Below, piece after piece: positions 8,557 to 24,537 of a stretch of DNA of 64,000 bases. The notes below the pieces were generated by a model, which did not search any database, was not told where the DNA came from, and saw nothing but the letters and a program-made list of their open reading frames with translations. The stretch is from Escherichia phage NHEP1. Position 1 is the stretch's first letter. Each line of letters opens with the position of its first letter. The stretch lies in the sequence record PQ511146.1; one strand, written 5' to 3'. A program made the position numbers and the translations under genes.

Positions 8557-8569
8557 TCTGGAGATTTGC

Positions 8570-9103: not shown

Positions 9104-9384
9104 AAATGAGTGCTAAGGACAAGTTGCACCAGTTAGCGCTAAAACGTCCTGTAACTCTCCCTGACGAGCTTAACTCCATTTATGATGCGATTGTAGGGGA
9201 GATACAAAATAAGGCGTTAGCAGGCTTTCTGGGATGCGGATTTTCGATAAATCTTCCATCACACCTCTCAGACTACTTCCCACACATCGTTGGGGATTTG
9301 AGGGCAGGAGGTCTGCAGGTGGATGTTGTTGGCATCTCCCCGGAGAAAAATAACACAGTTGCCTACTTGACAGTGACCTGGTAG
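9100..9384 (+). CDS. Hypothetical protein
   Basis: ATGA start/stop overlap with preceding gene; start moved to ATG 9100. Confidence 0.5.
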   Translation: MKMSAKDKLHQLALKRPVTLPDELNSIYDAIVGEIQNKALAGFLGCGFSINLPSHLSDYFPHIVGDLRAGGLQVDVVGISPEKNNTVAYLTVTW

Positions 9385-9419
9385 TAGTGTATTTTGTTTT
9401 CAACAAGAGGGGGTCATCT

Positions 9420-9659
9420 ATGTATAAGTCATTTTCAATTTACTCAAGACAGGCAAAACACTACACAGAGATTCTGATCACTCAGAAAAAATCTGTGGAA
9501 GGTGAGTGGGAATATCATCATAAAATGTTGCGTCCAGACTGGGTTTTTGATAGGCTTATTGCTATGATCCCTCTTGGAGAAGTATACCCTCTGACAGGTC
9601 ATAGGGATGCTTGGGATTTAATTGACTATATAGATTCATTTAAGGAGCCTAGATTATGA
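9420..9659 (+). CDS. Hypothetical protein
   Basis: In-frame ATG at 9420 preceded by GAGGGGG. Confidence 0.5.
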   Translation: MYKSFSIYSRQAKHYTEILITQKKSVEGEWEYHHKMLRPDWVFDRLIAMIPLGEVYPLTGHRDAWDLIDYIDSFKEPRL

Positions 9660-10054
9660 AGATTGAGATTACTGAAGAAGGTAAGAAAGTCTCTGGTAAC
9701 TATGCAACAGTTATCCGTGATGTAATGTTCGAAGTCACTAAGATTGGCACATCCAAGGTTGGTCAAACGGTGAGTGTGCAAGGTAATATCACCTCAGGAG
9801 AGAAGATATTCATCGTGATAAAAGGCCAGGATCCTGTAGAAGGGACAGTTGGACGTGGTGGATACTTGTGTATCTCTGAAGAGCCTCGCATGCTAGTTGC
9901 TGATAACTCCACAGGTAAAAAGCGAGTATGTAACACGGACGAGGTGATGATTATCTATCCAGTCAACCCGGATGATCCGGCAACATGGATTGTGGGAAAT
10001 GAAATCTTCTCTTTAGAAGAGTTATCCTTCCCAGCTCCGCGATCTGTTCAGTAA
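9656..10054 (+). CDS. Hypothetical protein
   Basis: Track ORF 132 aa, ATGA overlap with upstream gene. Confidence 0.55.
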   Translation: MKIEITEEGKKVSGNYATVIRDVMFEVTKIGTSKVGQTVSVQGNITSGEKIFIVIKGQDPVEGTVGRGGYLCISEEPRMLVADNSTGKKRVCNTDEVMIIYPVNPDDPATWIVGNEIFSLEELSFPAPRSVQ

Positions 10055-10093
10055 TAATTTATCTTACCAGGGACGGTAAAAGCAGGAGGTAGC

Positions 10094-10327
10094 ATGAAAG
10101 TTAAATTTCTTACAGATTTAGGGTACCCTTCCTTGGTTGACTGCGTTGGTAAAATTGTGGAAGCAAAACGGCTATCTGCAAACGATAATGTTGTCATGGT
10201 TAAGGGAAAAGATTTACTAGCTGCAGGTGCAGAGTCTGGCAGGATCTCTCCTGACTATACGTATTACCTGTCTTTAAGTAATCTACCAGAACGAGGCGGC
10301 AAAGGCCTTGAAGTTGTGGAGGAGTGA
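10094..10327 (+). CDS. Small acidic protein, paralog family A (MKVK...KG.DL.AAGA...VVEE)
   Basis: Shares N-terminal MKVK, KGxDLxAAGA core and acidic C-terminus with 13749, 13966, 15838, 16106 ORFs. Confidence 0.55.
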   Translation: MKVKFLTDLGYPSLVDCVGKIVEAKRLSANDNVVMVKGKDLLAAGAESGRISPDYTYYLSLSNLPERGGKGLEVVEE

Positions 10328-10869
10328 CAGGTATGCTTCTGATTAACTGGGAAGACCTCTATGGGGACAAAGACCCTGTTGCGTTTGTTGATCGTAGGTG
10401 GAGATACACTGAAGAACAACTGGCTGCAAAAAATTTAACTGCAAAACGCAGAAAGATCATCCAGTGCAAGTACAAATACGCACAGTTTGCTGCAAAAGTG
10501 TCTCCACAAATCGAGAGTTTTGTACTTAAATTGTATGACGAGTACCTCAAATTCAAATTGGATTTTGTACAGGTATACCGTGCACAGGTACGTCCAGATA
10601 CCAACATCTGTAGATGGAAGGTTGTTTGTGATGGTAAAGATTTGCCGCTCAGTTTGACAATTGAGTGGCGTTGGGGGTATCATGAGTGCGGTTTGTGTGA
10701 TATTTGGGATGTCATTGTAGATCCTGCTAAGTACCTGAACACAGAGGAGCTGGAATATATCAATAAGGTTATTCTAGATATGTTTTTCAGCTACACCCGT
10801 GAAAACTCTGAGAAAGAACGGGATAATTTTCTTGACACCCTCGGCAACCACCTGCAGTGTACAATTTAA
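10324..10869 (+). CDS. Hypothetical protein
   Basis: Track ORF 181 aa. Confidence 0.55.
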   Translation: MTGMLLINWEDLYGDKDPVAFVDRRWRYTEEQLAAKNLTAKRRKIIQCKYKYAQFAAKVSPQIESFVLKLYDEYLKFKLDFVQVYRAQVRPDTNICRWKVVCDGKDLPLSLTIEWRWGYHECGLCDIWDVIVDPAKYLNTEELEYINKVILDMFFSYTRENSEKERDNFLDTLGNHLQCTI

Positions 10870-10887
10870 CCTACAAAGGAGGAGCCA

Positions 10888-11124
10888 ATGAGTATAGATG
10901 CTGTGCTGATAGGTTACCTGGTAGTAGCTGTTATAACAGCAGTAATCTTGGCAGGTATATGCATCGTGTCTACACGAAGGGTGAAGTTTGATGATTTTAT
11001 CACCATCATCACTGCTGCGCCCTTTTGGCCTGTTGTTATCTTCATCGTAATAATGTGCCTAGTTGATTACCACAAGAATACCCGTAAGGAGAAAAAGGAG
11101 AGTAGGGATGGATACCGCACCTAA
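10888..11124 (+). CDS. Small membrane protein
   Basis: Hydrophobic N-terminal segments; RBS AAGGAGGAG. Confidence 0.5.
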   Translation: MSIDAVLIGYLVVAVITAVILAGICIVSTRRVKFDDFITIITAAPFWPVVIFIVIMCLVDYHKNTRKEKKESRDGYRT

Positions 11125-11239
11125 AACTGTTTATACTGTTCTTAAAGAGATTGCGTTCTACGCAGATCTTAGCCGGGCACCTTTATGGGAAAAGAATATG
11201 TATTTAAAATGGTGCGTGAAATTAGAGGGGGCCTTCTAA
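11108..11239 (+). CDS. Small ORF (43 aa)
   Basis: AAGGAGAG RBS 7 nt upstream; TAATG overlap with next small ORF. Confidence 0.3.
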   Translation: MDTAPKTVYTVLKEIAFYADLSRAPLWEKNMYLKWCVKLEGAF

Positions 11240-11358
11240 TGTTTCAAGCCATGTTTATTGAAATGCTCTCTGGGGTATTACTGCTGGTAGCCATTTTGGG
11301 TGGCGCGGCACTGATGTATAATTATCTTGAAAAAGGAGACAGTAATGACAAAAAATAA
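11239..11358 (+). CDS. Hydrophobic micro-protein (39 aa)
   Basis: MFQAMFIEMLSGVLLLVAILGGAALMYNYLEKGDSNDKK; overlaps next gene by 14 nt; junction sequence repeated at 18635-18659. Confidence 0.35.
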   Translation: MFQAMFIEMLSGVLLLVAILGGAALMYNYLEKGDSNDKK

Positions 11359-11530
11359 ATCCTTAGAACAGGCTGAAAACCTTCTCCACGAGCTGGTAAA
11401 GGAGTGGAAAGTTGAATACTCAGATTTTAATGCAAGAGAGGGGGAAGATTATTGGCCTACGGAGCGCTCAGAGGGAGAGTGGTATCAAGATTTCATAGAA
11501 TGGCTATATCAGACGTGCGATGAGGGGTGA
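11345..11530 (+). CDS. Hypothetical protein
   Basis: ATG 11345 with AAAGGAG RBS; track start 11327 is TTG. Confidence 0.45.
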   Translation: MTKNKSLEQAENLLHELVKEWKVEYSDFNAREGEDYWPTERSEGEWYQDFIEWLYQTCDEG

Positions 11531-11988
11531 CGATGTTTGTTAAATATGTAAAAACGTGCCTCAACAACCTTGGTAGAGAGCATTGGTACACACTGCTTGA
11601 AAAAGGAGAAATTTTAACAAAATCTGGAAAGATAACTTTGATACCTTTGGACGATAAAGACCCGTCACTACTTGTCATAGATGATTACGTTACAGGTGTG
11701 TCGTACGAGGTATCTGTGGAGAGGTTAATACGCAGATCTGGAGGTCCTTATGACCGAAGAGAGTATGTTTTCGATTCCGTTACAGAGAAGGAAGATCCGT
11801 CCCTGATGTTTAGGATGGTAATCAGGGATATGAAATCATCTATAAATAGGATCGTAAAGGACATTAAGGAGCCTTTTAGGGTAAAAGTTAAGAAGTTTTT
11901 TGATTCTAAGATCAACATACTCGCCGTTGTGCTGGGCGTAATTCAACTTCTGTTAATTTTGCACTATTTTGAACTGTTGTTTAAGTAA
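11527..11988 (+). CDS. Hypothetical protein with C-terminal hydrophobic segment
   Basis: Track ORF 153 aa. Confidence 0.5.
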   Translation: MTMFVKYVKTCLNNLGREHWYTLLEKGEILTKSGKITLIPLDDKDPSLLVIDDYVTGVSYEVSVERLIRRSGGPYDRREYVFDSVTEKEDPSLMFRMVIRDMKSSINRIVKDIKEPFRVKVKKFFDSKINILAVVLGVIQLLLILHYFELLFK

Positions 11989-12048
11989 TGTGCATTATGG
12001 CACAAAGGATGTGCCATAATTAAATAAACTAAGAAAGAGGTAGAGAGA

Positions 12049-12396
12049 ATGTCAAAGATTAAATCGATATTAATGTGGGTGTCTGTTGTAGCTTTTGTAG
12101 GATACTGGACTTGGGAAACTGAATTAAAAGATATTGGGTATACCAGCCTTGAGAGTAAGGCGTGCATTGGCATAACCGATGCATTCAGGCAGAATGCTAT
12201 GGATCACGAATGTGTCGATGCAGATATAGATGAGAAACTGTCTAAGGACAAAGATTTTTACCATGGTCATGCCTTGCTTGATAGTGGTGACACTGTAGAA
12301 TTCTGGTCGTGGTTCCGTGAAGATGGGACAATAAAGACAGCAGTAAAGATTTCCAACAAAGAGTTGATGCTGTTGCAGCAGAAGGAGGTGCAATGA
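12049..12396 (+). CDS. Hypothetical protein with N-terminal signal/TM segment
   Basis: Track ORF 115 aa; AAAGAGG RBS. Confidence 0.5.
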   Translation: MSKIKSILMWVSVVAFVGYWTWETELKDIGYTSLESKACIGITDAFRQNAMDHECVDADIDEKLSKDKDFYHGHALLDSGDTVEFWSWFREDGTIKTAVKISNKELMLLQQKEVQ

Positions 12397-12680
12397 TCTG
12401 GATATCCTACGCTGATGGCACCATGCTGTATACTGCAGGTACTAGATATGAAGTTAAGGAGGACGATAAAAAATTTATCGTAAAAACATTTGACAAGGAC
12501 GACAACCTTTTGCTAGAATTGACTTACAAGGTTGGGGATGTATCTAGCATCCAATTGGATTGCGGTCATAAAGATAACCCGCTCAAGAAACCTGGGGTAG
12601 GTAAAGCTTCAGAAGAACGCCTGTCTCGTATTGCAGAAAGCGTTTCTGCACAAAAATCTAAAAAGGGGACTAGAAAATGA
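12393..12680 (+). CDS. Hypothetical protein
   Basis: Track ORF 95 aa. Confidence 0.5.
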   Translation: MIWISYADGTMLYTAGTRYEVKEDDKKFIVKTFDKDDNLLLELTYKVGDVSSIQLDCGHKDNPLKKPGVGKASEERLSRIAESVSAQKSKKGTRK

Positions 12681-12871
12681 AAAACTTACATTTTAACACT
12701 TATTACTACAACACTTTGAATGATTTGTATTATATTGTTCGAAGTAAAAATCCTGAAACAGTCCTATTCTGCCGCGAACCTTTCAAAGGAGAGGAAGTGG
12801 AGTCTGAGATGAATGTTAGCCAGATTACCTCTTTGTTGCTCTCAGGTGCAATGGAAGAAGCAATATTCTAA
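12677..12871 (+). CDS. Hypothetical protein
   Basis: Track ORF 64 aa. Confidence 0.4.
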   Translation: MKNLHFNTYYYNTLNDLYYIVRSKNPETVLFCREPFKGEEVESEMNVSQITSLLLSGAMEEAIF

Positions 12872-12889
12872 ACCAGGCGGGAGGGTTTT

Positions 12890-13075
12890 ATGAAGCACTA
12901 TTGTCTGTCTGGTAGGATGGGGGTGGATTGTGATTGGGTTTTCTTAAAACTTGTCAGCGTTCGAGAGTCCATTCCAGAGGAAGAGCAAGAAAGTGAGCTG
13001 ATGTCATGGATCAACTATTACGGCAACACTTTCCGGTATGTCAAAATGGAAGAGCTGCCAAACGAGGATGATTGA
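12890..13075 (+). CDS. Hypothetical protein
   Basis: Track ORF 61 aa. Confidence 0.4.
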   Translation: MKHYCLSGRMGVDCDWVFLKLVSVRESIPEEEQESELMSWINYYGNTFRYVKMEELPNEDD

Positions 13076-13170
13076 TTATGGTAGCATCAATATTAACGTT
13101 TATGGGTGGCGTGGCATTCGGATTCATTCTTTGTCTGTTTATAGTTATTATGGCTATGCGAGGCTGAATT

Positions 13171-13455
13171 ATGAAACTGTTCGAGTGGTTTAAAAAGTTT
13201 AAATACCAGGCTGTTGCTGTATCGAAATGGACCGTCCGCTGGGTGGACGATGATGGAACACAAATTCCTGGTGATCAGGATACCGGATACTGGGTTATGA
13301 TGGAGAACGGATTTGGGAAAAGGAAGTTTAAATGTGCTGGCGCTCCTACTCTTTTAAATGTTAGGAATGTACCAGGGTACAGCACTATGGTTGTTTGGGA
13401 GCTATCCGGTGTTCCTCCTGCCAATGTGCAATATCTGCCAAACCCAGAAAAATAA
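13171..13455 (+). CDS. Hypothetical protein
   Basis: Track ORF 94 aa. Confidence 0.5.
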   Translation: MKLFEWFKKFKYQAVAVSKWTVRWVDDDGTQIPGDQDTGYWVMMENGFGKRKFKCAGAPTLLNVRNVPGYSTMVVWELSGVPPANVQYLPNPEK

Positions 13456-13467
13456 AAGGAGAAGATA

Positions 13468-13752
13468 ATGAGCAATGGTGTCAGCAACAGTGCTGCAGAG
13501 TTTAAAGTGATCTGTAAAGGAACTTATTGGATAGTGAAACAGAAGGTGTACCTATTCGGTTTCATACCGTTTTGGCAGAGATTTTGCTGGGGAGCTAACG
13601 AGCTTAAGAGATACGCCACCAAGGCTATGGCACTTATTGGTATAGCTGAATACATTGCTGCCAGGGACAGAGAGGGGAAAACTTGTTACTACACTGCTGA
13701 CGAGATTCGTAACAGTGTTTACGTTCCACAACCGCCTGAGGGAGACCGTTGA
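13468..13752 (+). CDS. Hypothetical protein
   Basis: Track ORF 94 aa with AAGGAG RBS. Confidence 0.5.
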   Translation: MSNGVSNSAAEFKVICKGTYWIVKQKVYLFGFIPFWQRFCWGANELKRYATKAMALIGIAEYIAARDREGKTCYYTADEIRNSVYVPQPPEGDR

Positions 13753-13976
13753 TGAAAGTTAAAGTTTTAGATTCAAGCTTCTATATTGGTCAGGAGCCCT
13801 TAGTGGGGAAAGTGTTTACCGCTATCCCTAACGAAGATTATCCTGACCTTTTAAAAATAAAAGGTGCAGATCTTATTGCCGCTGGTGCATCCCAGGAATG
13901 CTTTGACAGTCAGTGGACCTACAACTTTGCCCTAGGAGAGGATGTGGAGATAGTGGAGGACGATCATGAAGGTTAA
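13749..13976 (+). CDS. Small acidic protein, paralog family A
   Basis: MMKVKVLDSSFYIGQ...IKGADLIAAGA motif. Confidence 0.55.
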   Translation: MMKVKVLDSSFYIGQEPLVGKVFTAIPNEDYPDLLKIKGADLIAAGASQECFDSQWTYNFALGEDVEIVEDDHEG

Positions 13977-14220
13977 AATTCTTGACTCTAACGTCTACTT
14001 GGGACAATCCTTCCTGAAAGGAAAGGTCGTACCTGCTGTATACTTCGAAGGGTTGCCGTGGGACGATCCTGTGCGGCAAAATCACAGCCATGTAGGCCAC
14101 AATGTGGTGTTCATCTTGGGATCAGACCTGATCGCGGCTGGTGCCCCGGAATATTATTTCGGAGAGGACTTGTATTATGCCTTTGGGGCAGGGTCAGATG
14201 CGGATATTTTAGAGCTGTGA
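13966..14220 (+). CDS. Small acidic protein, paralog family A
   Basis: MKVKILDSNVYLGQ...GSDLIAAGA motif; tandem to 13749. Confidence 0.55.
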   Translation: MKVKILDSNVYLGQSFLKGKVVPAVYFEGLPWDDPVRQNHSHVGHNVVFILGSDLIAAGAPEYYFGEDLYYAFGAGSDADILEL

Positions 14221-14232
14221 TGGGGAACTATT

Positions 14233-14631
14233 GTGAAAAATAAACTGTTCAAAGTTACAATGAAAATTCGCGGAGCTTGGAGCGTAAAGCAAGGGCGTAT
14301 CCCCGAATTTGAGAAAGACTTCTACGTAGTCTCCACCTCGGAGGAGGCTGCATGCTGGCAGGCTGGCTATGCCTATGCAAGAACCTGGTACGAAGGATAC
14401 CAGACTGGTGGCTATGACGGAGAAATTATCAGCAAGGGTGTAGAAGAAATTAATGTGTTGACAAGTGAAAAAGTTTTTGTTATAGTGCATCCAGATTCCA
14501 GAGTGAAGCATTACTGGAATGCCAGAACAAAAACTTGGACACCGTTTGCAGATTCTGCTACACCACTTTTAAGCCAGAAAGCTCTTGACTCTGCTCCAAG
14601 CTACGGGGTTGTTGAAGAAAAGCTAAACTGA
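14233..14631 (+). CDS. Hypothetical protein, paralog family B
   Basis: C-terminal half similar to 16438..16833 (HP.S...YYW.....W TP motif). Confidence 0.55.
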   Translation: MKNKLFKVTMKIRGAWSVKQGRIPEFEKDFYVVSTSEEAACWQAGYAYARTWYEGYQTGGYDGEIISKGVEEINVLTSEKVFVIVHPDSRVKHYWNARTKTWTPFADSATPLLSQKALDSAPSYGVVEEKLN

Positions 14632-14648
14632 AACAGTGAGGTACCAAC

Positions 14649-14939
14649 ATGATGGATTTAGTTCTGGACACTGATAACACCGGAGCGTTTAAAAAGGATG
14701 GTGCAATAAGCATTGACCAATTCTTCCCTGCCAAGATTGACTCAAAATGGACCTACAAGTTTGACGGTGAGATCTTCGCAAATGATGAGAAGGTCGTGGA
14801 TGCTGTAGCCATTTTAAACGCTTTAGGGTATGACCCTGTGAACTCATTGATCAAGGATCCTGTTGAGTTTGCAGAGTATGTTCGTAAAATGGCAGATCTT
14901 GCAGTAGATATTTTAAAAACTATCGACAACAAGTTGTAA
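14649..14939 (+). CDS. Hypothetical protein
   Basis: Track ORF 96 aa. Confidence 0.5.
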   Translation: MMDLVLDTDNTGAFKKDGAISIDQFFPAKIDSKWTYKFDGEIFANDEKVVDAVAILNALGYDPVNSLIKDPVEFAEYVRKMADLAVDILKTIDNKL

Positions 14940-14945
14940 AAACTG

Positions 14946-15001
14946 TTGACACAACGCTTCAGATTTAGTATCATTGTTTTCAAAGAGGGTTGGTTCCCTC
15001 T
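14946..15001 (+). promoter_or_regulatory. Sigma70-like promoter (TTGACA-N17-TATCAT) followed by 5'UTR stem-loop AGAGGG/CCCTCT
   Basis: Hexamers at 14946-14951 and 14969-14974; hairpin 14984-15001; precedes HPF-like gene. Confidence 0.5.
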
Positions 15002-15020
15002 TCTTTAAAAGGAACACATT

Positions 15021-15338
15021 ATGCAAATTGAAATCACTGGCAACGTAGAGATCACTGAAGGTATGGTGTCTTTCATTTCCAACAAAATGTCCAAGCTGGA
15101 GCGTTTGCACCCCTCTGCCAACTATGCACGTGTGAGTGTAAAAGTTGAAAATGATCACCAGGAAGTTATGGCTTTCATTTTTGACAATTCTGGGAAAGAA
15201 GTTATCGCCAAAGCTAAAGGCAGCGATGCTTACGAGGCAACTGACCGTATGGTGGATGTTGCAGCACGCCAGTTGGCTAAATGCGGTGGAAAGAAAGGTA
15301 AGGGAAAAGGTAAAGTAAAGATTGACTTTTTAGATTGA
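15021..15338 (+). CDS. Ribosome hibernation promoting factor / RaiA (S30Ae family) homolog
   Basis: MQIEITGNVEITEG...KLERL...VKVE...ARQLAK pattern matches bacterial HPF/YfiA; Lys/Gly-rich tail. Confidence 0.8.
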   Translation: MQIEITGNVEITEGMVSFISNKMSKLERLHPSANYARVSVKVENDHQEVMAFIFDNSGKEVIAKAKGSDAYEATDRMVDVAARQLAKCGGKKGKGKGKVKIDFLD

Positions 15339-15475
15339 GGTGCTACAATGGGCATGATTAAGAAATTAGTCCCAAATGTAGAGATTGCATGCTTTGAAAT
15401 TATGTTTGCAATCGCAGTTGTAGTTAATGTGTTAGGTTACGGCTATTAATATCAAATAATTGAGGAGACCTCTAA

Positions 15476-15745
15476 ATGAAAATTAAATTATTCCAAACTG
15501 AGCTGGCAGACAAAAACTGTGGACTGGTTGAAGGCATGATCGTTGAAGCACAACCAGTTGACTACATGAAGGTGGTTCGTGATGCCCTGGGTGAAGGTTT
15601 TGATCTGATGGAGCCAGCTCTGCGAGAAGATGTCATCGAGATGGCTAAAAAGCACACACCGGAAGGTTTGGTAGTGTTTGTTGCACCAGGTAACGGGGAA
15701 GAGTTGATTGTAACTCCGGATGTGTATGAGGTTGTAGAAGAGTAA
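15476..15745 (+). CDS. Small acidic protein (C-terminal YEVVEE), paralog subfamily
   Basis: MKIKLF start and C-terminal VYEVVEE shared with 16913 ORF. Confidence 0.5.
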   Translation: MKIKLFQTELADKNCGLVEGMIVEAQPVDYMKVVRDALGEGFDLMEPALREDVIEMAKKHTPEGLVVFVAPGNGEELIVTPDVYEVVEE

Positions 15746-15837
15746 TCCTGCTTGGGTTAGCATACTTTCCTCTACAAGAAAGGTTTGTAATTATTTGTGG
15801 GAAAGGAATCCCCATCTCTTACCAGAGGTGATACTAT

Positions 15838-16101
15838 ATGATTGTTTATTTTAAAACTTCAGGTGGATACCCTGATTCTCAAAGCTTGATTGGAAAAACG
15901 TGCACAGCATACTCACCTCTTGATGAGGAGGTAAGCAATATCCTACGAGATATGTATCGGATTGATCCCCAAGAAGCTTTTGATCAAAACCTTGTATTTG
16001 TCAAGGGATCAGACATAAAGTCTTTGGGGGCATTCCCTGAAGCAGATGATGATGCTGTTTATTCGTTTATGACACCTTTTGAAGCTATGATTGTGGGGTG
16101 A
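15838..16101 (+). CDS. Small acidic protein, paralog family A-like
   Basis: VFVKGSDIKSLGA core motif. Confidence 0.5.
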   Translation: MIVYFKTSGGYPDSQSLIGKTCTAYSPLDEEVSNILRDMYRIDPQEAFDQNLVFVKGSDIKSLGAFPEADDDAVYSFMTPFEAMIVG

Positions 16102-16105
16102 GAAT

Positions 16106-16438
16106 ATGAAAGTACGCTTTATTGGTGAAACAATTCCTGTGCATCTCCGGTCTCCTGAAGACTCTGCAGATCTTGCATCTCAAAAGGCGAGAGGGTATGA
16201 TAAGAAAGTGATCTCAAGCAATGTAGAGCTTGAGGCCACCAGTCTACCTGACCCAGCTGCATTCTTCAATCATTATGGCTACTATTTTAGCAATCTGATG
16301 AATATTGGTGAGCTTGTGTTTATTAGTGGTGGAGAGATAGTTAGCAAGCTTGGTGGAGATCCGGATATCTTTCATGAAACCTGCCCTTTTGCATTTGTGG
16401 TGGGTTCAGATGTGGAAGTTATTGAGGAGGTTCGGTAA
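16106..16438 (+). CDS. Small acidic protein, paralog family A-like
   Basis: ATG 16106 (MKVRF) after GGGGTGAG; C-terminal VEVIEEVR. Confidence 0.5.
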   Translation: MKVRFIGETIPVHLRSPEDSADLASQKARGYDKKVISSNVELEATSLPDPAAFFNHYGYYFSNLMNIGELVFISGGEIVSKLGGDPDIFHETCPFAFVVGSDVEVIEEVR

Positions 16439-16833
16439 TGGTAAGTCTATACCGTGTTGAGTATAGCTCGGATACTGTATACAATGTAAGAAGCAAAGAT
16501 CGCAGTGACAGAGTGCAAGAAATGTATGTTCTTGCAGACAGTCCGTTATCTGCAGCGTTCAAGGCAGGAGCTCTTGCATCTCGTTGGAAATTTGAGGGTG
16601 GATCTTTCTATGAAGAAACCCTTGAAGATTCTGTTGTTATTTCTTCTGTAGAGGTTTCAACCGACTACGAAGGGAAAAAGTTCGTAATGCGGCACCCACA
16701 CAGCAACATTGCGTACTACTGGGATGTTCTGAACAATGAGTGGACCCCTGATCTTCAGAAGGCCACTGTTCTAACCCCATTCCTGGCAGATAAGTTTCCA
16801 CCAGAAGGTAATTTATCTGCACTGTTTCAGTAA
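16438..16833 (+). CDS. Hypothetical protein, paralog family B
   Basis: Similar to 14233..14631 over C-terminal half. Confidence 0.55.
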   Translation: MVSLYRVEYSSDTVYNVRSKDRSDRVQEMYVLADSPLSAAFKAGALASRWKFEGGSFYEETLEDSVVISSVEVSTDYEGKKFVMRHPHSNIAYYWDVLNNEWTPDLQKATVLTPFLADKFPPEGNLSALFQ

Positions 16834-16842
16834 TTTTATGCC

Positions 16843-16880
16843 ACACAGGTGTTGACAACACCAACCCTGTGTGCAATAAT
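16843..16880 (+). promoter_or_regulatory. Promoter TTGACA-N17-AATAAT embedded in a 12-bp-arm palindrome
   Basis: CACACAGGTGTTG...CAACCCTGTGTG inverted repeat overlapping the -35. Confidence 0.4.
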
Positions 16881-16912
16881 ACCTTCATCTTAACAAGATA
16901 GGAGACCGATTG

Positions 16913-17170
16913 ATGAAGATTAAATTGAAAAACCTTGAAACGGCAGAGATTCAGGAAGGTATTGATTTCCGTTCTAAAGATGGAGACATCCTGGAGGCGA
17001 ATGTCCCGACATATAAGTTGATTAAAGGTTTTGGCAACGTTCCGGAGGAGGATATTACAGACATTCTTATGATGTTGATCCTTGACGGGACTGTGTTTGT
17101 AGGTGAAGGTGAGAACGCTATTGCAATCCCGAGCCATTTTTATGAAGTAGTTGACGAAGAGGTGCTGTAA
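16913..17170 (+). CDS. Small acidic protein (C-terminal YEVVDEEVL)
   Basis: ATG 16913 after AGGAG RBS. Confidence 0.5.
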   Translation: MKIKLKNLETAEIQEGIDFRSKDGDILEANVPTYKLIKGFGNVPEEDITDILMMLILDGTVFVGEGENAIAIPSHFYEVVDEEVL

Positions 17171-17521
17171 ATGAAAGTAGAGATCACAGGTTTTGATATG
17201 AATGCGGTTCCGGAAGATATTTTAGCTAAACTCCCGGAAGGTTTTGGTAACGGTGTTGTGGTTGATGCTGTTCCTCCTACCAAAGACATCCTGCTGCAGT
17301 ATGGTGTGGCAGAGGAAGATGTTGATAAAGTTCTTACAATGATGGCAATCGACCGTGTTGTCGTTGTTAAAGGTCTTGAAGGTTTTGATAACGATCCTCT
17401 GATTATTCGTGGTGATGACTATCATGTCATCGACAACGAAGGCCAAGAGTTCTACGAACCTTCTGCTGAAGATGTTCTTAACTTACTACTGGAAGCAGGC
17501 ACCGAAGAGGAGGAAGAATAA
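17171..17521 (+). CDS. Small acidic protein with poly-Glu C-terminus
   Basis: Track ORF 116 aa ending EEEEE. Confidence 0.5.
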   Translation: MKVEITGFDMNAVPEDILAKLPEGFGNGVVVDAVPPTKDILLQYGVAEEDVDKVLTMMAIDRVVVVKGLEGFDNDPLIIRGDDYHVIDNEGQEFYEPSAEDVLNLLLEAGTEEEEE

Positions 17522-17850
17522 TGAAAATTGATCCGTTACTGAAGGCTCGTGCAGAAAAAGCATACACTATCAAGCTGACCTCTCTGGTCCCTACTTGTCA
17601 TCCGGATGTAGGTTGGCCTGAAGGCTTGGTAGAGGGGACTGTAACAGCTGCATACCTTCCTAACATCAAATACCTCATGGAGATCTTGGAGATGGATGAG
17701 GAAACGGCAGAACAGTTCCAGTTAGACATGAAGCAAAGTGGGACTCTGGTTATTCACGGGTGGTATAATACTAAAGATGCAGAAGATCCCCTGGTAACTT
17801 CTAATCTGGCATATGAGATCTTAGGGCCTTTGAACTTGGGGGAAGACTAA
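17521..17850 (+). CDS. Hypothetical protein
   Basis: Track ORF 109 aa, ATGA overlap. Confidence 0.5.
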   Translation: MKIDPLLKARAEKAYTIKLTSLVPTCHPDVGWPEGLVEGTVTAAYLPNIKYLMEILEMDEETAEQFQLDMKQSGTLVIHGWYNTKDAEDPLVTSNLAYEILGPLNLGED

Positions 17851-18137
17851 TGAAAGATTTGGTTAAGATCAAGATTAAAGACACCAATGGAGAACTCAGC
17901 CATTTTGGAATTAACGATGGTGACGAGCTGATCGCCCACCTGCCTACCAAGGAAGTTGTAAGCAAAGCGGTTGCCGGAGAAGAAGATGCAATGCAGGCTG
18001 CAGGTGTGGATGAAAGCTATGTAGCAATGTGTATGTGCCGAGATCAGGTTGTTCTGTATAAAGCGTATCGACCAAATGGAGCACCTGAGTGGCTTGTTTT
18101 CCGACCCGAAGGGTATGAAATTTTAGAGACGCTATGA
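17850..18137 (+). CDS. Hypothetical protein
   Basis: Track ORF 95 aa. Confidence 0.5.
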   Translation: MKDLVKIKIKDTNGELSHFGINDGDELIAHLPTKEVVSKAVAGEEDAMQAAGVDESYVAMCMCRDQVVLYKAYRPNGAPEWLVFRPEGYEILETL

Positions 18138-18226
18138 TAAATCTTGCCAAGGTTGCAACGGCACTGTTAATTATTTGCTGGATAGTGACCTTGGCACTAT
18201 GTCTTGTATTTCATTAAGGGGGCTAT

Positions 18227-18490
18227 ATGAACATCTTGGTGTGGGTTGTAGCAGTAGCGTTTGTTGCGTGCCTCTCTTGTTGGGTTGCTGTGAGGATTTC
18301 TATAGCCACTCTTCGGAAATTAGGGTTCTCAGAGTGGGATATTAATATCCTTTCTTTTCGCAATGAGACAATCTCAGCCGCCCTGCTGTGTAAGAAGTTT
18401 AAGTGGGAACCTTGTGAGGTCATGAACTATCTAAGAACAGGAGATATTCCTGAGAGATTTAAAAAAGTTCTTGACGGCAAAGACAAATGA
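18227..18490 (+). CDS. Small membrane protein
   Basis: Hydrophobic N-terminus ILVWVVAVAFVACLSCWVAV. Confidence 0.5.
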   Translation: MNILVWVVAVAFVACLSCWVAVRISIATLRKLGFSEWDINILSFRNETISAALLCKKFKWEPCEVMNYLRTGDIPERFKKVLDGKDK

Positions 18491-18518
18491 TAGTATAGTG
18501 ACTAACAAGAGGTGAGGA

Positions 18519-18659
18519 ATGACTGATTTTACTGAAGCTTTAATGATGGCCTTATCTGTTTTAGCGCTATCGGTGTGTTTTGGGGCGTTATTCACATCTC
18601 TGGTTAAAGTTTTACATACCATATTCTCACCCAAGGAGCACAGTAATGACGAAGATTGA
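18519..18659 (+). CDS. Hydrophobic micro-protein (46 aa)
   Basis: GAGGTGAGGA RBS; overlaps next gene by 14 nt; C-terminus HSNDED resembles 11239 ORF C-terminus SNDKK. Confidence 0.35.
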   Translation: MTDFTEALMMALSVLALSVCFGALFTSLVKVLHTIFSPKEHSNDED

Positions 18660-18897
18660 CTTAAATGCTGGCGACCATGTTGTTGTCAAATGCATCGGGG
18701 ATTATCTTGGATTCACAATCGGCAATACTTACGAGGCAGTGGTGGCGAAGGTTTATCATGATAAAGTCCTCAGCCTTGTATTTGACTGCGATGATGACGG
18801 AGATGACCGTTACGTCTGTGAGGTGCTGGCACGTGACGATAGTGAAGACCAAAAATTCCTGGTTATTGAACTGAACGGTATTTTTGTAGAACGTTAA
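18646..18897 (+). CDS. Hypothetical protein
   Basis: ATG 18646 with AAGGAG RBS; track start is upstream alternative codon. Confidence 0.5.
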   Translation: MTKIDLNAGDHVVVKCIGDYLGFTIGNTYEAVVAKVYHDKVLSLVFDCDDDGDDRYVCEVLARDDSEDQKFLVIELNGIFVER

Positions 18898-18925
18898 TTT
18901 AAAACAATATAAGGAGACTCTTACT

Positions 18926-19231
18926 ATGGCTAAATCTAAAGTTGAACTGTTCACCTCTCTGCCTTCTGACATTGCAGAGCGTGATCGCCTCCGTAAAACA
19001 ATTGAAGAGCTGGTGGAACTTCAGCTTCAGATTAAAGATCTGAAAGATGCTATCAAAGATATTATTCTTGTCGAGAAGCAGGATCACTTGTATTCTCCTA
19101 AGTTTATCAAGTCATTGGTGGCTACCGAGTTCGATATCCGCTACGAAGCTGAAAAACGTCGAGCTAAAATCGAAGAGGAGGTTGAGCACATGTCTGAAGC
19201 AGACATTCTGTTCAAACGCTCTGCAGAATAA
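18926..19231 (+). CDS. Hypothetical coiled-coil-like protein
   Basis: Track ORF 101 aa; AAGGAG RBS. Confidence 0.5.
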   Translation: MAKSKVELFTSLPSDIAERDRLRKTIEELVELQLQIKDLKDAIKDIILVEKQDHLYSPKFIKSLVATEFDIRYEAEKRRAKIEEEVEHMSEADILFKRSAE

Positions 19232-19235
19232 TGAC

Positions 19236-19262
19236 AAAGAGGGGTCTTGGCCCCTCTTTTTA
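19236..19262 (+). terminator. Rho-independent terminator
   Basis: AGAGGGGTC-TTGG-CCCCTCT followed by TTTTT. Confidence 0.6.
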
Positions 19263-19284
19263 CTATCTATGAAGGAGATCAGAG

Positions 19285-19611
19285 ATGCTAATGCCGATTA
19301 CTGTAAAAGAACTAAATGAACGTGATGCAGGAGGCCTGTGGCCTGCACGGAAAATACGCTGCGTTTATATGAAAGAGAATCTTGAACACCTTGATCAACA
19401 GATTGCGGTTGGCGATATTTTCGAAGTTCTCTATTCTAATCGCCGCAACTGGGAAACCATTCAACCTTCCGGTTTTGTTCTTGCCAGACTTGATACCGGA
19501 GAAGTGATTATCCCCGGGCTGGATATTGTCTTCGAAATTATCCAGGAGTGGGATCCTGATAAGATTAAATATGAAGAGTTATTCGGCGAAGGTATTATCA
19601 AGCCTGTGTGA
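19285..19611 (+). CDS. Hypothetical protein
   Basis: Track ORF 108 aa; GAAGGAG RBS. Confidence 0.5.
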   Translation: MLMPITVKELNERDAGGLWPARKIRCVYMKENLEHLDQQIAVGDIFEVLYSNRRNWETIQPSGFVLARLDTGEVIIPGLDIVFEIIQEWDPDKIKYEELFGEGIIKPV

Positions 19612-19619
19612 GGTGGATT

Positions 19620-19919
19620 ATGTCTACAACGACAGCTAAATACTCCTATATGCCAGCAACCTCAGCAGAAATAGACTTCAGTTTCGATGTGTTTCCATTG
19701 TTTGAGATAGTCCTGGCATACCCAACAATTCTATCTACTCCTGAATCACTTGTACCTGTTAAGTTGCAGAACGCTATGCATTCCATGCACTACAACAATA
19801 AATGCAGGCACAGATGGTGTCAGGACGAGGAAAAAGATCTGGAGAGTTTGAAAGATTTTGACAGTCACCTTTTGACACCTTTTAGTTACTCAAACCTAGA
19901 CAAGCCTTCATGGGTATAG
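19620..19919 (+). CDS. Hypothetical protein
   Basis: ATG 19620; track start 19608 is GTG. Confidence 0.5.
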   Translation: MSTTTAKYSYMPATSAEIDFSFDVFPLFEIVLAYPTILSTPESLVPVKLQNAMHSMHYNNKCRHRWCQDEEKDLESLKDFDSHLLTPFSYSNLDKPSWV

Positions 19920-19943
19920 CAAAGTATCAAATTTAAGGCACAT

Positions 19944-19970
19944 AGGACGCTCTGTGGCGTCCTTTTCTTT
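19944..19970 (+). terminator. Rho-independent terminator
   Basis: AGGACGC-TCTGT-GGCGTCCT followed by TTTTCTTT. Confidence 0.6.
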
Positions 19971-20547
19971 ATCTGGTGAACGATTCCATACCTTAAGCAG
20001 TTAATATCATTACAGAGCGTTTAAAGGCGGCTTACAAGCAACTCTCTATTTCGAGCGTAGCGAGAACGCACGTCCGTTTTGACCCAAATCACCATACGCT
20101 CGGATTTTAACCAAACCCTCGCGGTGTTTCTGTTGACACATTACCGCTCCTGAAATATGCTTATAGCATCGACACGTTCCAGCCATATGTCGATAAAGTC
20201 TTATTTTTTAAACATGTTGCCGGAATACTCACGGGTGGAACATGACCAACACACATGCATCTACAGAAACATCTGGAGGAGTGAAAGAGGAAAACTTCAA
20301 TTCTGAGGATTCTCTATCTCCGTCCCAGGTGGATCCTGAGGCTGATGACCTAACGTGGGAGGATATCATAGCCATCTGGTTCTCTATTATGCCTGAGCAC
20401 GAAGAGTTCAGAGGTGGGAGACTATAAAGCACCGAGCCCACATAAGTTTATCATGCTAAAGCATGGCCTGAAGAGGCAAACGTGCATAATTCCATCGTAT
20501 TGGAACGTGTAAACCCTGTTCACACTCTCATTTCCAGAGGAGATTCC

Positions 20548-20763
20548 ATGAAAATAGAGATATTTGGTGGGGCTGACAACACTCGTGGCCTGATTTACCT
20601 TGAATTCGATGAATCATACCTGCCAGAGGTGTTAAATATAGATGCTGTTGCGGAAGCCCTTGATGTAGACCCTAAAGATCTCTACTCCCGTGCTGAGATT
20701 GATGGTTGGGAAGAGACTCTGAACATTGATTTCAGTGAAGTAGTAGATGAACCTTTGGACTGA
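20548..20763 (+). CDS. Small acidic hypothetical protein
   Basis: ATG 20548 after GAGGAG; 71 aa. Confidence 0.4.
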   Translation: MKIEIFGGADNTRGLIYLEFDESYLPEVLNIDAVAEALDVDPKDLYSRAEIDGWEETLNIDFSEVVDEPLD

Positions 20764-23270
20764 CACACAAGTCTGCTTTGCAGGTTTAGCTGCTCAGCTA
20801 AGGTTCTGGAGGCACCTATAACATCTTCCAACTAAATTTCCTACCAACACAGTTACTTACCTACCACACATGACTGTTTGCTTGTTTAGTGAGCAGTCAT
20901 CACTTGACATTCTTGCCTATCTTGATAAAATTAAGTTCTTCTCTTTTCTTTTACCGAGTAATTCGGGTTTTCTGTTCTCTTCGGTTTGAAGGGGTATGGA
21001 GATACACCTGAGTGAACAGGGTGAACAACCGAACCTTTAGCTATGGCATTAGCATGGCGAAGCGGACGGGTGACGAAAGAGGGGCCGGAGGACACCAGTC
21101 ACTGCCATATAGTATATGGGTGATAACCTGAAGAGTCTGAATAAGTGTTTAAGTACCAGTCAGAGGAAAAGGTGAATGGTAGCCGAAGGGGGAGGGGGGT
21201 TTCTTATATCTTTAATTTGTATACTTTATATACACTTGTAAACCAATTCAATTAGAATCTGTTTACCACACAAAGGGGATGGAGACAAATATCACCTATT
21301 AAACTTGAATTATTTATAGAAAATACCACAACACCCGTTAAGTCTTTGATTTTACACACAAATCTTACAAATATCCTACCTCCACATTTAACATACTTGT
21401 AACATATTCCATATCCTACCTGCCTGATCAATTTACTCCATCACATTCCCACATTTTCCCTGTCTGTACTACCCCACCCCCGCCGGGAGTCCCGTCATAT
21501 CTGGCTTTCCAGCAAATATCACACCAACAAATATCATCACCTGAAGAGGGTTTCATCCCATAATACCTGCCTTACCTGAAGAGCGCTTCATACACCACGT
21601 AAATTTTTTAATTGACCCCTCCCCGCCGCCAGAGAGGTTGGCTTTTCCCACACAGGCCTGAAGAGTCAGCCAGAAATATCTGAACAGGCAGTTATGTCCC
21701 GATTTTGTGCTTGTCCTACAGGAGTGCTGCCAGGCGGACGGAATGGGAATACTTCTCATTCTTATAATAATTCTCAAATATCGAGGCAGTGAGGCAAATT
21801 AATAGGCCAGGCCGTTCACACAGTGGCACAACATTTGCAATCTATCTTGTGTGGATGAATGAGAATACCTATCATTGTGAGAATGGTTATCATTACGGGC
21901 AATTTAACATAATACCCATTATGCGCACCACTGGCGATACATACAGGGATTGATAACATGGGTTACTGTTTACGCATATAACAATTATATTTCTTACTAT
22001 TTGTGTGGGATATAGTTAGCAACCAATAGATTAGATATTGACCTGCAGACTTCTGACCGTCCAGACGTCTAAACGCCCACACAACAAGGATTATACATAC
22101 ACTCCTGCATGTAACCAGGGCCGCAAAAATGCTACCATACCAGTTTGTAAATTTTTCATGCAGCACTTGACAAAGAGGAGAAAAACTTGTCTGACACAAT
22201 GTGACAATTTTGTCACTTTTGACACTTTTACCTTTGACACAATATGACACAATAACGGCTGTTACTATTCCATATCTCACTGTTTACGCCTGAATAGTTT
22301 ACGCAAAAACTGTTTACACAGAGATGATAAGCCATGCCATTCGTTTGCATGAAAACAATTAACAAGATAACAATTGACAAGCTAACAGCCAACAAGCTGA
22401 CAGTTAATAAGTTAATAAGTTATGACATAATATAAAAGCAGGGCAACTATTAGAAGATCTATAGTTGCCTTGCTTGTTATGTCATGATTAACTAAATACA
22501 AGGCAACTATGATCTGAATAATAGATTGCAGACAAACTATCACGGGGGTGATTGTTACTGCTTTTATATTATGTCGCGACTCCGTCGCGCCATGCCATTC
22601 GTTTGCATAGTTGCCTTATTGTTACAGGTAAAACAATTACATTATTAATTATTTCTTATCTTTCTCTTAGTCATCTAATGATTCCAGTCAGTATAGTAAT
22701 GTACAGTAAACATTAGACGACTAAATATTTCTCTGTGTATAATAACTTATCGTGACAATTTCGAACTGTTTACGAAAAATGTTGACACCTGAGCTGATTT
22801 ATGTTATGCAGTTTACACGAATAATTATTTTATGCAGGTATTGACTATTCCGTTATTCTGTGGTTGGAATAAATACTTTGCAGACTATAGAATGGCGTGC
22901 GTACGTGAATTCTGAGATCTGGCGGCTATAGTTATACTCGATTTTTCGCGTAGAACACGCTTTCGATGCTGTGTAAGTGTATGACTTATAAAGATTTTTA
23001 GTTGTTGACAAGATATTGGAGATGTGCATCAGGTTAAAATTTGTGCAATAGCGGCATTACGTGCACTTTTGGGAGAGAAAACGGGTAAAAATGGCCCTGC
23101 TACCACACAATGAAAGATTATGCAATAGTTATTTTCCATGTATATTTGTACAGTATGTGGGATTGATGGCTAGTCAATTATTCCACTTGCCAGGTAGGGC
23201 CGTTTATGGTAGGAGAAGAGCAGACAAAAAGAAAGGGGCCTTTAAGCCCCTTGATAATTCAGTTAAGAAA
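20764..23270. repeat. ORF-poor, repeat-dense non-coding zone at the convergence of plus and minus transcription blocks
   Basis: No convincing ORF of 100 aa or more; at least five short repeat families seen (see findings). Confidence 0.6.
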
Positions 23271-23690
23271 TTATAATGATTCGTATATTTCAAAAATCCG
23301 ATTTGCCAGGTCGTTACGGTAGCGGAATTTTTCATCGCGCTTGATCATTAAATCCTTATAGCCGTACTCTTTAAGCACTTCATTAACTTTATAGCGGCAT
23401 ACCTGCATATTATCTTGAGCGTCACCAATAAACTTGTTGCTGTGGTGCATTGCTTTAATTTCTTCTTCCAGGACCAGGGCAACTACCCGGACCGGATCAA
23501 GCTGATAGGCGGTAACATCTATGCGGCATTGTAGACGGCTTTTAACGTCTGCCACCGGATATACTGCAACCTCTTCCCCGTCAACATTGACAATAATTAG
23601 TTTACCATCGATTTCGAATCCTTTCGCCGCCGGACCGTGACAAAAAGCGTTATCAAAGCTATATGCCGGATTATCAGATTTAATGTTCAT
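23271..23690 (-). CDS. Hypothetical protein
   Basis: Track ORF 139 aa; ATG with AGAGG RBS. Confidence 0.5.
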   Translation of the reverse strand: MNIKSDNPAYSFDNAFCHGPAAKGFEIDGKLIIVNVDGEEVAVYPVADVKSRLQCRIDVTAYQLDPVRVVALVLEEEIKAMHHSNKFIGDAQDNMQVCRYKVNEVLKEYGYKDLMIKRDEKFRYRNDLANRIFEIYESL

Positions 23691-23834
23691 GGTGTTTTTA
23701 CCTCTTAGTTAATTTTCTTACAACTTCCCTTCAAAAAAGAATATAGCAAAACTGCCGATCCCTGTCAACAAGGGATAGCATAATTTTTATGTGATCAAGG
23801 GGCTTTATCGCCCCTGACCATGCAACCTGTTGTA

Positions 23835-24098
23835 TTATTTGTTGCTCATCCAGTTTTCCCAAGCTGCCTGATAATCTGCCTCACTACGGCGGATCTCTTC
23901 TTGTTCTTCAAGCCGGATCTCTTCTTCCAGGTACCCCAAGATGTCAGCCTTTTTAGTCTGGCGCAACATCCAATCGTCTTTTTTGCGAGTAAAGATCTTG
24001 TACGCTTTCTCGCAAACTTCTTTTTTGCTACCTTTTTGGACTTCAAGAATTCTGTAAGCCATGTACTGAACTAGTTTGAGCTGGTCAAGACGTTTCAT
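23835..24098 (-). CDS. Hypothetical protein
   Basis: Track ORF 87 aa; promoter and hairpin upstream. Confidence 0.45.
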   Translation of the reverse strand: MKRLDQLKLVQYMAYRILEVQKGSKKEVCEKAYKIFTRKKDDWMLRQTKKADILGYLEEEIRLEEQEEIRRSEADYQAAWENWMSNK

Positions 24099-24161
24099 GA
24101 TGTTTTCCTCTTTATGGGGTTCTGGTTTGGTGGGGGCCTTTTGGCCCGTGTCATTATCTTA

Positions 24162-24434
24162 TTACTTACGGCGGCAAAATTCAAGTGTTTTTAATTGATA
24201 ATCTTCCTCAGCCTGGAGTACAACCGCCTCGATCATTTCGTTGGCATTGTTGAAGCCATACCCTTGAGCGAACTCATCCGCGCCACCTTTGTGATCATGT
24301 TCTGCGTTCATCGCTTCCACAAAATGGAATTCAAGATTATTGAGGTAGGGGCTTGATGTTCCGTCCTCTTTTTCGATGAGATCCCAGATAGCGTTAAAAC
24401 GTGATTCGACTTCTTGGTTAATCCAGCTTGACAC
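24162..24434 (-). CDS. Hypothetical protein
   Basis: Track ORF 90 aa. Confidence 0.5.
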   Translation of the reverse strand: MSSWINQEVESRFNAIWDLIEKEDGTSSPYLNNLEFHFVEAMNAEHDHKGGADEFAQGYGFNNANEMIEAVVLQAEEDYQLKTLEFCRRK

Positions 24435-24537
24435 GGCGTTTTCCTCTCTTCTGGTTGTTGTGTGGGCACTTTTGCCCCTTCAAGGTAAATGCTACCCCAC
24501 CACCCGGCAGATGTCAACGGTTTTTATAGTTTTTTAT

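Follow-up and report, generated by a model that had tools for sequence, protein, structure and literature searches.

A 2.5-kb gene-free gap contains the probable terminal repeat of Escherichia phage NHEP1

Within a 64,000-nucleotide stretch of the Escherichia phage NHEP1 record (PQ511146.1; hereafter "the window", i.e., the whole stretch analyzed), we examined a non-coding segment bounded by two copies of a 20-bp direct repeat. The window belongs to a Vequintavirus, an rV5-like Escherichia coli myovirus, and the 1.5 kb around the segment match 119 phage records at 80-99% identity, mostly above 90%. The segment sits in a 2.5-kb gene-free gap (~20764-23270) between convergent blocks of rightward and leftward genes, across which relatives annotate either no genes or sporadic small open reading frames (ORFs). 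The rV5 genome paper drew this gap as a "non-coding" box and noted that the bidirectional terminators to be expected between genes 163 and 164 were not found.

The decisive context, which lay beyond the reach of an initial annotation of this DNA, is that the segment stands beside a direct terminal repeat (DTR). Terminal redundancies of 458 bp were reported for EdH4 and HdK5, and 459-bp terminal repeats with a fixed packaging start for Gotham; on the evidence of these relatives, the genome is probably non-permuted with short direct terminal repeats. Base 1 of the EdH4 record corresponds to window position 21733 and its last base to 22191, and the first 459 bp recur at the end of that record. 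The DTR is present once in the window, which is therefore in a concatemer-junction or circularized form. With the boundary transferred from relatives, the bounded segment begins 140 bp into the unique DNA at the left end of the genome. As the cut sites are placed by relatives, the distance of the various repeats is 0-430 bp to the inner DTR boundary and about 460-890 bp to its outer boundary.

The initial annotation had reported a 20-bp direct repeat, inverted motifs, and an AACAA/TAACAA-rich stretch, and all three were borne out (Table 1). The 20-mer GCCATGCCATTCGTTTGCAT occurs in two exact copies, 258 bp apart, and no further copy was found in the window at up to three mismatches (0 from 100 shuffles). 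The motif GGCAACTAT lies at 22442-22450 and 22502-22510 and its reverse complement ATAGTTGCC at 22461-22469 and 22607-22615, making four copies between or beside the 20-mers. A longer form, AGGCAACTAT, has 10 matches in the window at no more than one mismatch (4.35 expected), four of which form a cluster at this segment. The AACAA stretch is a genuine short-period array, in which Tandem Repeats Finder resolved a period of 15 at 22354-22387 and of 8 at 22402-22422. In this region TGACAYAAT occurs four times, and nowhere else in the window. The bounded segment opens with GAAAACAATTAAC and closes with GCGACTCCGTCGC, its inverted repeats being internal rather than terminal. Its GC-rich box runs into the right 20-mer, the start of which overlaps the end of the box, and AT-rich conserved DNA follows at 22620-22700.

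Table 1. Features at the left genome end, in window coordinates
Feature	Coordinates	Strand	Remarks
DTR, 459 bp	21733..22191		Boundaries transferred from the EdH4 record; its right edge marks the inner boundary at the left end of the genome
TGACA(C)AAT short-repeat array	22192..22254	+	First base directly after the DTR; opens the hypervariable patch
ACTGTTTACRC repeats, three, 15-bp period	22279..22320	+	~2 to ~10 copies in relatives
Left 20-bp direct-repeat copy	22331..22350	+	Kept in 19 of 20 distinct segment-bearing relatives examined; missing in V18
AACAA/TAACAAG array, variable length	22352..22422	+	Many relatives add a ~50-bp hairpin module that the window lacks
Left arm P of the perfect 18-bp inverted repeat, GACATAATATAAAAGCAG	22424..22441	+	Invariant in 20 sequences
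Inner hairpin GGCAACTAT/ATAGTTGCC, 15-bp stem, 10-nt loop	22436..22475	-	Followed by TTTTATATTAT on the minus strand
Third GGCAACTAT copy (CAAGGCAACTAT)	22499..22510	+	Can pair with 22461-22472 or 22606-22617
Small hairpin AACTATCAC-GGGG-GTGATTGTT	22535..22556	+	Directly ahead of the right arm
Right arm P' of the perfect 18-bp inverted repeat, CTGCTTTTATATTATGTC	22558..22575	+	From repeat search
GC-rich box GTCGCGACTCCGTCGCGCC	22573..22591	+	Most conserved stretch across genera
Right 20-bp direct-repeat copy	22589..22608	+	Kept in every relative examined, FV3 and V18 included
Fourth motif copy (CATAGTTGCCTTATTGTTA)	22606..22624	+	84% complementary to 22493-22511

A perfect 18-bp inverted repeat closes a compound palindrome

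The segment contains a perfect 18-bp inverted repeat (GACATAATATAAAAGCAG/CTGCTTTTATATTATGTC) that was absent from the initial annotation; the segment has no further copies elsewhere in the window. This repeat closes a compound palindrome of about 150-165 bp, after which comes the GC-rich box. Folding of 22415-22630 gave z = -9.2 against shuffled sequence, on either strand and as RNA or DNA. Because the four GGCAACTAT copies alternate in orientation and arm P has two partners, two mutually exclusive pairing schemes are conceivable, in which P pairs either locally with 22477-22485 or with P'. On the plus strand, the long hairpin ends in a closing pair AAGCAG/CTGCTT followed by TTTATATTAT, and the closing stem has T-rich tails on both strands. 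The left arm itself contains TGACATAAT, which resembles an extended -10 promoter element, and a promoter-like site covers 22404-22431.

Read on the minus strand, the inner hairpin has a 15-bp stem with one mismatch, directly followed by a T-run (TTTTATATTAT), and it is downstream of the leftward gene block; in sequence terms this has the layout of a rho-independent terminator, a stable stem-loop with a U-rich tract past the end of a transcription unit. Within the matched stretch, a minus-strand terminator is annotated in both the Murica and the Alma record, corresponding to about 22440-22480 of the window. A simple consensus terminator scan missed the hairpin because its 10-nt loop exceeds the limit of the scan. 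Judged by sequence, this candidate is probably an intrinsic terminator for leftward transcription.

We found no match to the covariance models of Rfam 15 up to E = 1 on either strand of 19500-24500, and a scan for tRNA and tmRNA genes found none. A coding origin of the core was considered for a 43-aa hydrophobic ORF on the minus strand (22412-22543), which is open in most relatives, even across a 33-nt insertion (see below). We rejected it: it has no ribosome-binding site, every observed change is non-synonymous, its end enters variable DNA, and it is broken in V18.

Among rV5-like phages the core is nearly invariant and the adjacent arrays are hypervariable

We aligned 13 relatives and profiled their identity to the window. 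The gap is 84-100% identical, about equal to or above the flanking genes, except at 22200-22430, where identity is 0.48-0.73. The profile drops from 0.98 to 0.48 at 22200, and hypervariability starts at the first base past the terminal repeat. This variable patch comprises the TGACAC(AAT) repeats, the ACTGTTTACRC repeats, the left 20-mer, the AACAA array, and an optional hairpin module of ~50 bp; from 22421 on, there is hardly any variation. Of the 119 records, 117 have the core (22420-22588), 106 of them at 95-99% identity. Across 20 distinct sequences it has few polymorphisms, mostly in the loop of the inner hairpin and in unpaired stretches, and within the inner hairpin changes are confined to the loop. 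The core is too invariant for covariation of the arms to be seen within the genus (no compensatory changes), and the evidence for their pairing comes from other genera only. Outside the core, the 20-mers vary only by a C or an A at position 7 (patterns C/C in 13, A/C in 5, and A/A in 2 sequences), at a spacing of 213-339 bp. The comparison with relatives for which the initial annotation had called thus found the repeats present and the length of the bounded segment varying.

Three further observations concern this variation. The optional ~50-bp module (TCTTTCGCTGGCTATGCCAG GTGAC..GTCAC CCCTTCGGG) forms two small hairpins and aligns between window positions 22403 and 22421. It is present in 12 of the 20 distinct relatives, e.g., Murica (L005) and sequences L007 and L010, is lacking in the window, and resembles a weak plus-strand terminator ahead of the left arm. 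A 33-nt insertion after window position 22476, between the inner hairpin and TTATGTCAT, occurs in phita32 (L012) and typing phage 5 (L016); it breaks the local extended hairpin and spares the pairing of the 18-bp arms. About ten records with only 80-90% core identity may carry it too. Lastly, both junctions of unique DNA with the DTR (21700-21749 and 22192-22430) are local hot spots of substitutions and indels, with the DTR and the rest of the gap highly conserved.

The inverted repeat and the GC-rich box recur across Vequintavirinae genera

Besides the window, we compared W70 and UPEC06 (a separate Vequintavirinae clade), PVP-SE1 and EspYZU15 (Seunavirus), Av-05 (Avunavirus), and TH18. All of them share a gene-poor gap between convergent gene blocks, and at the homologous position each lineage has an inverted repeat that begins GACAY(A/T)ATA, giving five lineages with the window. 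The repeat of W70 (GACACTATAAAACGAG...) is 21 nt long and 90% complementary, with the first 16 positions perfect and 63 nt between the arms. That of PVP-SE1 (GACACTATAACACGAGAG) pairs at 18 of 18 positions across 183 nt, and those of Av-05 and TH18 (GACACAATAACGCAGTAG) each at 18 of 18, across 188 and 136 nt, respectively. The inner 8-10 nt of the arms differ by lineage yet remain Watson-Crick paired, without any G-T pairs; such wobble-free compensatory change speaks for a constraint that acts on DNA or else on both strands. Complementarity was taken for each lineage from the repeat finder, as the MAFFT alignment of arms across genera was too asymmetric for formal pair counting. More direct copies of the GACAC motif lie upstream of the arms, e.g., four GACACAAT units at 53-bp spacing in TH18.

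Directly 3' of the right arm, every lineage has the GC-rich box, consisting of GTCGC, 6-8 nt, and GTCGCGCCA (GCTCGCGCCA in the two Seunavirus phages). Of the W70 module, blastn detects nothing but this box in Seunavirus, Avunavirus, and Cronobacter phages (~92% over 36 nt). A degenerate box pattern, scanned against IMG/VR, gave non-specific GC-rich matches only. The position relative to the terminal repeat is likewise shared: the UPEC06 record has identical 462-bp ends, whose boundaries CTGCCA/GGC and TTGTC/T (the slash marking the boundary) are homologous to those of EdH4, and the distance from the start of the left arm to the terminal-repeat boundary is 233 nt in the window and 226 nt in W70. 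Promoter-like sites stand directly upstream of the left arm in W70 and UPEC06, that of UPEC06 being TTGACA-16-TATAAG.

Other parts are particular to each lineage. The interior between the arms, GGCAACTAT included, is not conserved between genera. Three lineages have a direct repeat with its right copy at the end of the GC-rich box, in unrelated sequences: 20 nt in the window; 18 nt in W70, at a spacing of 418 bp, where the left copy falls within the terminal repeat; and 18 nt in PVP-SE1, at a spacing of 86 bp, where the left copy lies between the arms and the right copy starts 3 nt after the box. These comparisons qualify the proposal of the initial annotation that the layout might be a dimeric protein-binding operator set. 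Palindromic motif pairs do exist and may be such a set, but no gene for a helix-turn-helix or other DNA-binding protein was found adjacent, and GGCAACTAT is genus-specific and forms inner stems of a larger palindrome; the parts that cross genera are the outer inverted repeat and the GC-rich box. We conclude that the segment is one genus's version of a non-coding module that is conserved next to the Vequintavirinae terminal repeat and has not been described before; a function can be assigned to it provisionally, by position and analogy (see Discussion).

FV3 lacks exactly the bounded segment

The sole sequence-verified exception to the presence of the core is FV3, in which a single 20-mer has TGTTTAC repeats on its left and AGTTGCCTTATTG on its right, so that exactly the bounded segment is missing and one repeat copy is kept, as at an empty site. 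V18 has a separate deletion, in which the TGTTTAC repeats, left 20-mer, and AACAA array are gone and the core is kept. At 1455-1475 of the V18 sequence (L013), a run of 13 A followed by CTGCAG takes the place of the deleted parts, marking this as a second, independent deletion. The 172 bp to the right of the segment are present in 119 of 119 records. In distance trees of both flanks, FV3 is nested among segment-bearing phages and is not an outgroup; since it groups inside the carriers, loss is the economical reading. Its sequence fits a repeat-mediated deletion, not mobility, and the loss could have arisen in the phage or in cloning for sequencing.

Slipped mispairing classically has this result, in which a hairpin-forming stretch flanked by direct repeats is removed precisely. 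FV3 resembles in this respect the palindrome-stimulated deletions known from precise excision of Tn10 and Tn5, where a hairpin segment between direct repeats is lost precisely and one copy is left. It differs in that the repeats here are 20 bp long with both copies conserved in more than 100 phages, and in that the loss is seen in one lineage only and might stem from cloning. The conservation of both 20-mers across these phages suggests that they are retained for a reason.

The initial annotation had also seen in this layout a small bounded cassette. That the segment is bounded stands, FV3 lacking exactly the inter-repeat DNA; that it is mobile does not. Were it a small mobile or site-specifically excisable cassette, with the 20-mers as target duplications or attachment sites, FV3 would be the empty site, and its single repeat copy does look like one. 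But the core is found in nearly all records in the same place and once per genome, terminal inverted repeats are lacking at the ends of the segment, a duplication of 20 bp would be unusual for transposition, FV3 falls within the carriers, and inner parts of the segment are kept at this locus in other genera. No recombinase or transposase gene was found near the segment, the neighboring proteins having no Pfam domain and belonging to PHROGs of unknown function. A search of 5,426 E. coli genomes gave no match to the segment, and the only match in a plasmid collection was one phage-sized record. Exact 20-mer scans of metagenome and genome collections returned only close relatives and one chance match in a cytochrome oxidase gene. 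Together these points leave the mobile account with hardly any probability. The segment is real and non-random, and it is not a mobile cassette.

Neighboring features and related records

In the unique DNA just left of the DTR, (A/G)CCTGAAGAG occurs in five plus-strand copies (20466, 21126, 21539, 21574, and 21656), which may be the right-end counterpart of the left-end arrays. No Chi sites were found near the genome end. Past the last rightward gene, at 20904-21200, there is a near-consensus sigma-70 promoter (TTGACA-16-TAAAAT, with TG), and the ~250 bp of non-coding DNA after this promoter at 20904 are 97-100% identical in 13 relatives. We considered and dismissed an RNA product there, as it has no Rfam match and its fold is no better than that of shuffles (z = -1.3). 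Many near-consensus sigma-70 promoters lie on the plus strand of 1-20000, seven of them at 11-12 of 12 matches; their density is consistent with a heavily transcribed early region reading toward the genome end.

On the other side of the non-coding end region, a 139-aa gene (23271-23690, minus strand) has 89% protein identity to a homolog in Phapecoctavirus, which belongs to a different subfamily. The homolog lies within about 1-1.6 kb of record ends, which suggests exchange of end-proximal genes between phage groups; the non-coding DNA of Phapecoctavirus is not alignable, though the adjacent 139-aa gene is common to both. The 87-aa product of 23835-24098 (minus strand) is called "DNA translocase FtsK" in several public records, has no Pfam support, and belongs to a PHROG of unknown function. 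We rejected this label and a neighboring "Rel homology" label as pointers to a binding protein, since neither has Pfam support.

Some of the matching records carry unexpected source labels. Eighteen MG0656xx "Campylobacter phage" records (host C. jejuni) match the region, four of them in the first search at ~91% over the full 1.5 kb, and their C. jejuni host labels look doubtful. CP057073.1, an E. coli "plasmid" of 137,565 bp with 91% identity to the region, is vequintavirus-sized and probably phage DNA.

Discussion

We favor, tentatively and at somewhat short of an even chance, the reading that the segment is a fixed cis-acting element of the genome end, with a part in concatemer processing, packaging, or replication start. 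The reading is drawn from the fixed position by the DTR, the conservation of the GC-rich box, the wobble-free complementarity of the arms, and the absence of coding potential and of any RNA family match. Such an element would probably work either as a hairpin of single-stranded DNA or as a structure bound by protein. Read from the left end, packaged DNA would present the 459-bp terminal repeat, the TGACAC and then the TGTTTAC arrays, the left 20-mer, the AACAA array, the compound palindrome with its 18-bp inverted repeat, the GC-rich box, and the right 20-mer. The palindrome and the box would act in cis on this DNA when it is single-stranded or being processed at the concatemer junction, their likely roles being duplication or cutting of the terminal repeat, the start of packaging, or an end-proximal start of replication. 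The inner GGCAACTAT hairpin would halt leftward transcription ahead of the terminal repeat. The 20-mers would most likely be paired recognition sites, or else a maintained duplication of sequence next to the GC-rich box; as a side effect, they would make the palindrome deletable through slipped-strand or recombinational loss, as may have happened in FV3. A more specific version is possible, if on the doubtful side: the inverted repeat and GC-rich box ~230 bp inside the left DTR, together with a lineage-specific direct repeat of the sequence beside the box, would be an undescribed cis element of all Vequintavirinae that acts through a single-stranded DNA hairpin in DTR duplication or cutting or in replication priming, with the direct repeats as co-evolving sites for a phage protein.

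Among described layouts, that at the left end of T7 comes closest. Its terminal repeat of 160 bp gives way to ~12 CCTAAAG repeats at 175-340 with a 13-bp period, and the leftward promoter A0 (at 224) and phiOL (at 405) lie in and beyond this array. The two ends are alike in having a short direct terminal repeat, fixed ends, and an array of short repeats almost directly after the terminal repeat (here from 22192), with promoter-like sites and inverted repeats just inside the array, and in both the terminal repeat has to be duplicated in concatemer processing. They differ in that there is no sequence similarity, and NHEP1 is a 137-kb myovirus that is not known to encode an RNA polymerase of its own. 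The palindrome here is also far larger (~150 bp, with perfect 18-bp outer arms), comes with a GC-rich box and flanking 20-mers, and the genes beside this end are transcribed toward the end, not away from it. During T7 infection, a hairpin containing the terminal repeat was reported in concatemer processing (PMC4281155). Terminase recognition regions offer another likeness: the R sites of lambda cosB, the hexamers of P1 pac, and pacL/pacR of SPP1 are clusters of short direct and inverted motifs by an end-making site. Here the cut sites are placed by relatives, and terminase binding would be putative.

Several points weigh against a cis-acting end element. The spacing of the two 20-mers is variable, and the left repeat copy is placed differently in each lineage, which weakens the case for one conserved two-site mechanism. 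Arms that are 63-188 nt apart do not readily extrude as a cruciform from duplex DNA, and their pairing therefore needs single-stranded DNA or RNA. No cognate DNA-binding protein was identified among the neighboring genes with Pfam and PHROGs. The DTR boundaries of NHEP1 are those of relatives, carried over by sequence, and the role proposed in packaging, replication, or termination is drawn from position and analogy. FV3 and V18 were deposited as viable phages without parts of the module; if these records are accurate, a phage can be viable lacking the arrays or the left 20-mer, and even lacking the palindrome.

The same structures admit other explanations. The module might be a transcription barrier and nothing else, i.e., a bidirectional intrinsic terminator or insulator between the convergent blocks across the concatemer junction, with no role for the 20-mers. 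It sits where the rV5 authors expected a bidirectional terminator, the inner hairpin with its minus-strand T-run falls where two other groups annotated a terminator, the long plus-strand hairpin closes AAGCAG/CTGCTT ahead of TTTATATTAT, and the plus-strand block upstream is rich in consensus sigma-70 promoters. Bidirectional terminators between convergent operons do share with it a stem-loop with an A-rich 5' flank and a T-rich 3' flank, but here the stem system extends over ~130 nt and can pair in alternative ways. Other genera have no T-run, and the part they conserve is the GC-rich box: the right arms of PVP-SE1 and Av-05 (GUGUUAUAGUGUC and GUUAUUGUGUC) are fully paired, have no U-run, and run directly into the box. 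A barrier would leave the conservation of the box across genera, the wobble-free 18-bp arms, and the paired 20-mers unexplained, and its hairpin was not listed by the simple terminator scan, given the loop length. We regard a barrier with no further function as unlikely. Slightly less likely still, in our judgment, is a replication origin near the genome end, in which the TGACAC, TGTTTAC, and P-type repeats would be iterons and the palindrome with its AT-rich stretch an unwinding or priming zone, possibly activated by transcription from TGACATAAT. Short direct repeats do form regular arrays, with a 15-bp period here and a 53-bp period for the GACACAAT units of TH18; the DNA at 22620-22700 is AT-rich and conserved; and promoter-like sites occur at 22404-22431 and directly upstream of the W70 and UPEC06 left arms. 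In T7, phiOL, a promoter associated with replication, lies just beyond the left repeat array. rV5-like phages also have a T7-type primase-helicase and a Pol A polymerase, according to the rV5 paper. On the other hand, no initiator gene was found nearby, the 15-bp spacing is out of helical phase, and the skew analysis of rV5 followed the direction of transcription, not an origin. The putative iterons are moreover the least conserved part, ranging from ~2 to ~10 copies with none in V18.

More improbable again is a reading in which the invariant core gives rise to one or two small structured RNAs, which might be convergent and complementary over their full length, each starting at one arm and ending at the other. 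What speaks for them is the very strong folding on both strands, the extended -10-like TGACATAAT in the left arm and the TTGACA-16-TATAAG upstream of the arm in UPEC06, the T-rich tails past the closing stem on both strands, and a long-range arm pairing with compensatory change that is typical of RNA. Yet there are zero G-U pairs in about 85 arm pairs from five lineages, the arms enclose DNA that is not conserved across genera, and no Rfam match appears down to E = 1. A -35 element is not conserved either, because the DNA upstream is the hypervariable array, and a search for expression data on these phages found none.

A cis-acting element of the genome end, the reading we prefer, bears on phages that have been isolated widely and that find use in cocktails for therapy and biocontrol. 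What is new here is that the region is placed beside the terminal repeat and that its conserved pieces, the inverted repeat and the GC-rich box, are told apart from arrays that vary freely. This explains the tendency of assemblies of these phages to break or differ at this place. Knowing which pieces are conserved and which vary gives concrete targets when the packaging signal and the origin are to be defined, packageable vectors built, or safe sites for engineering chosen.

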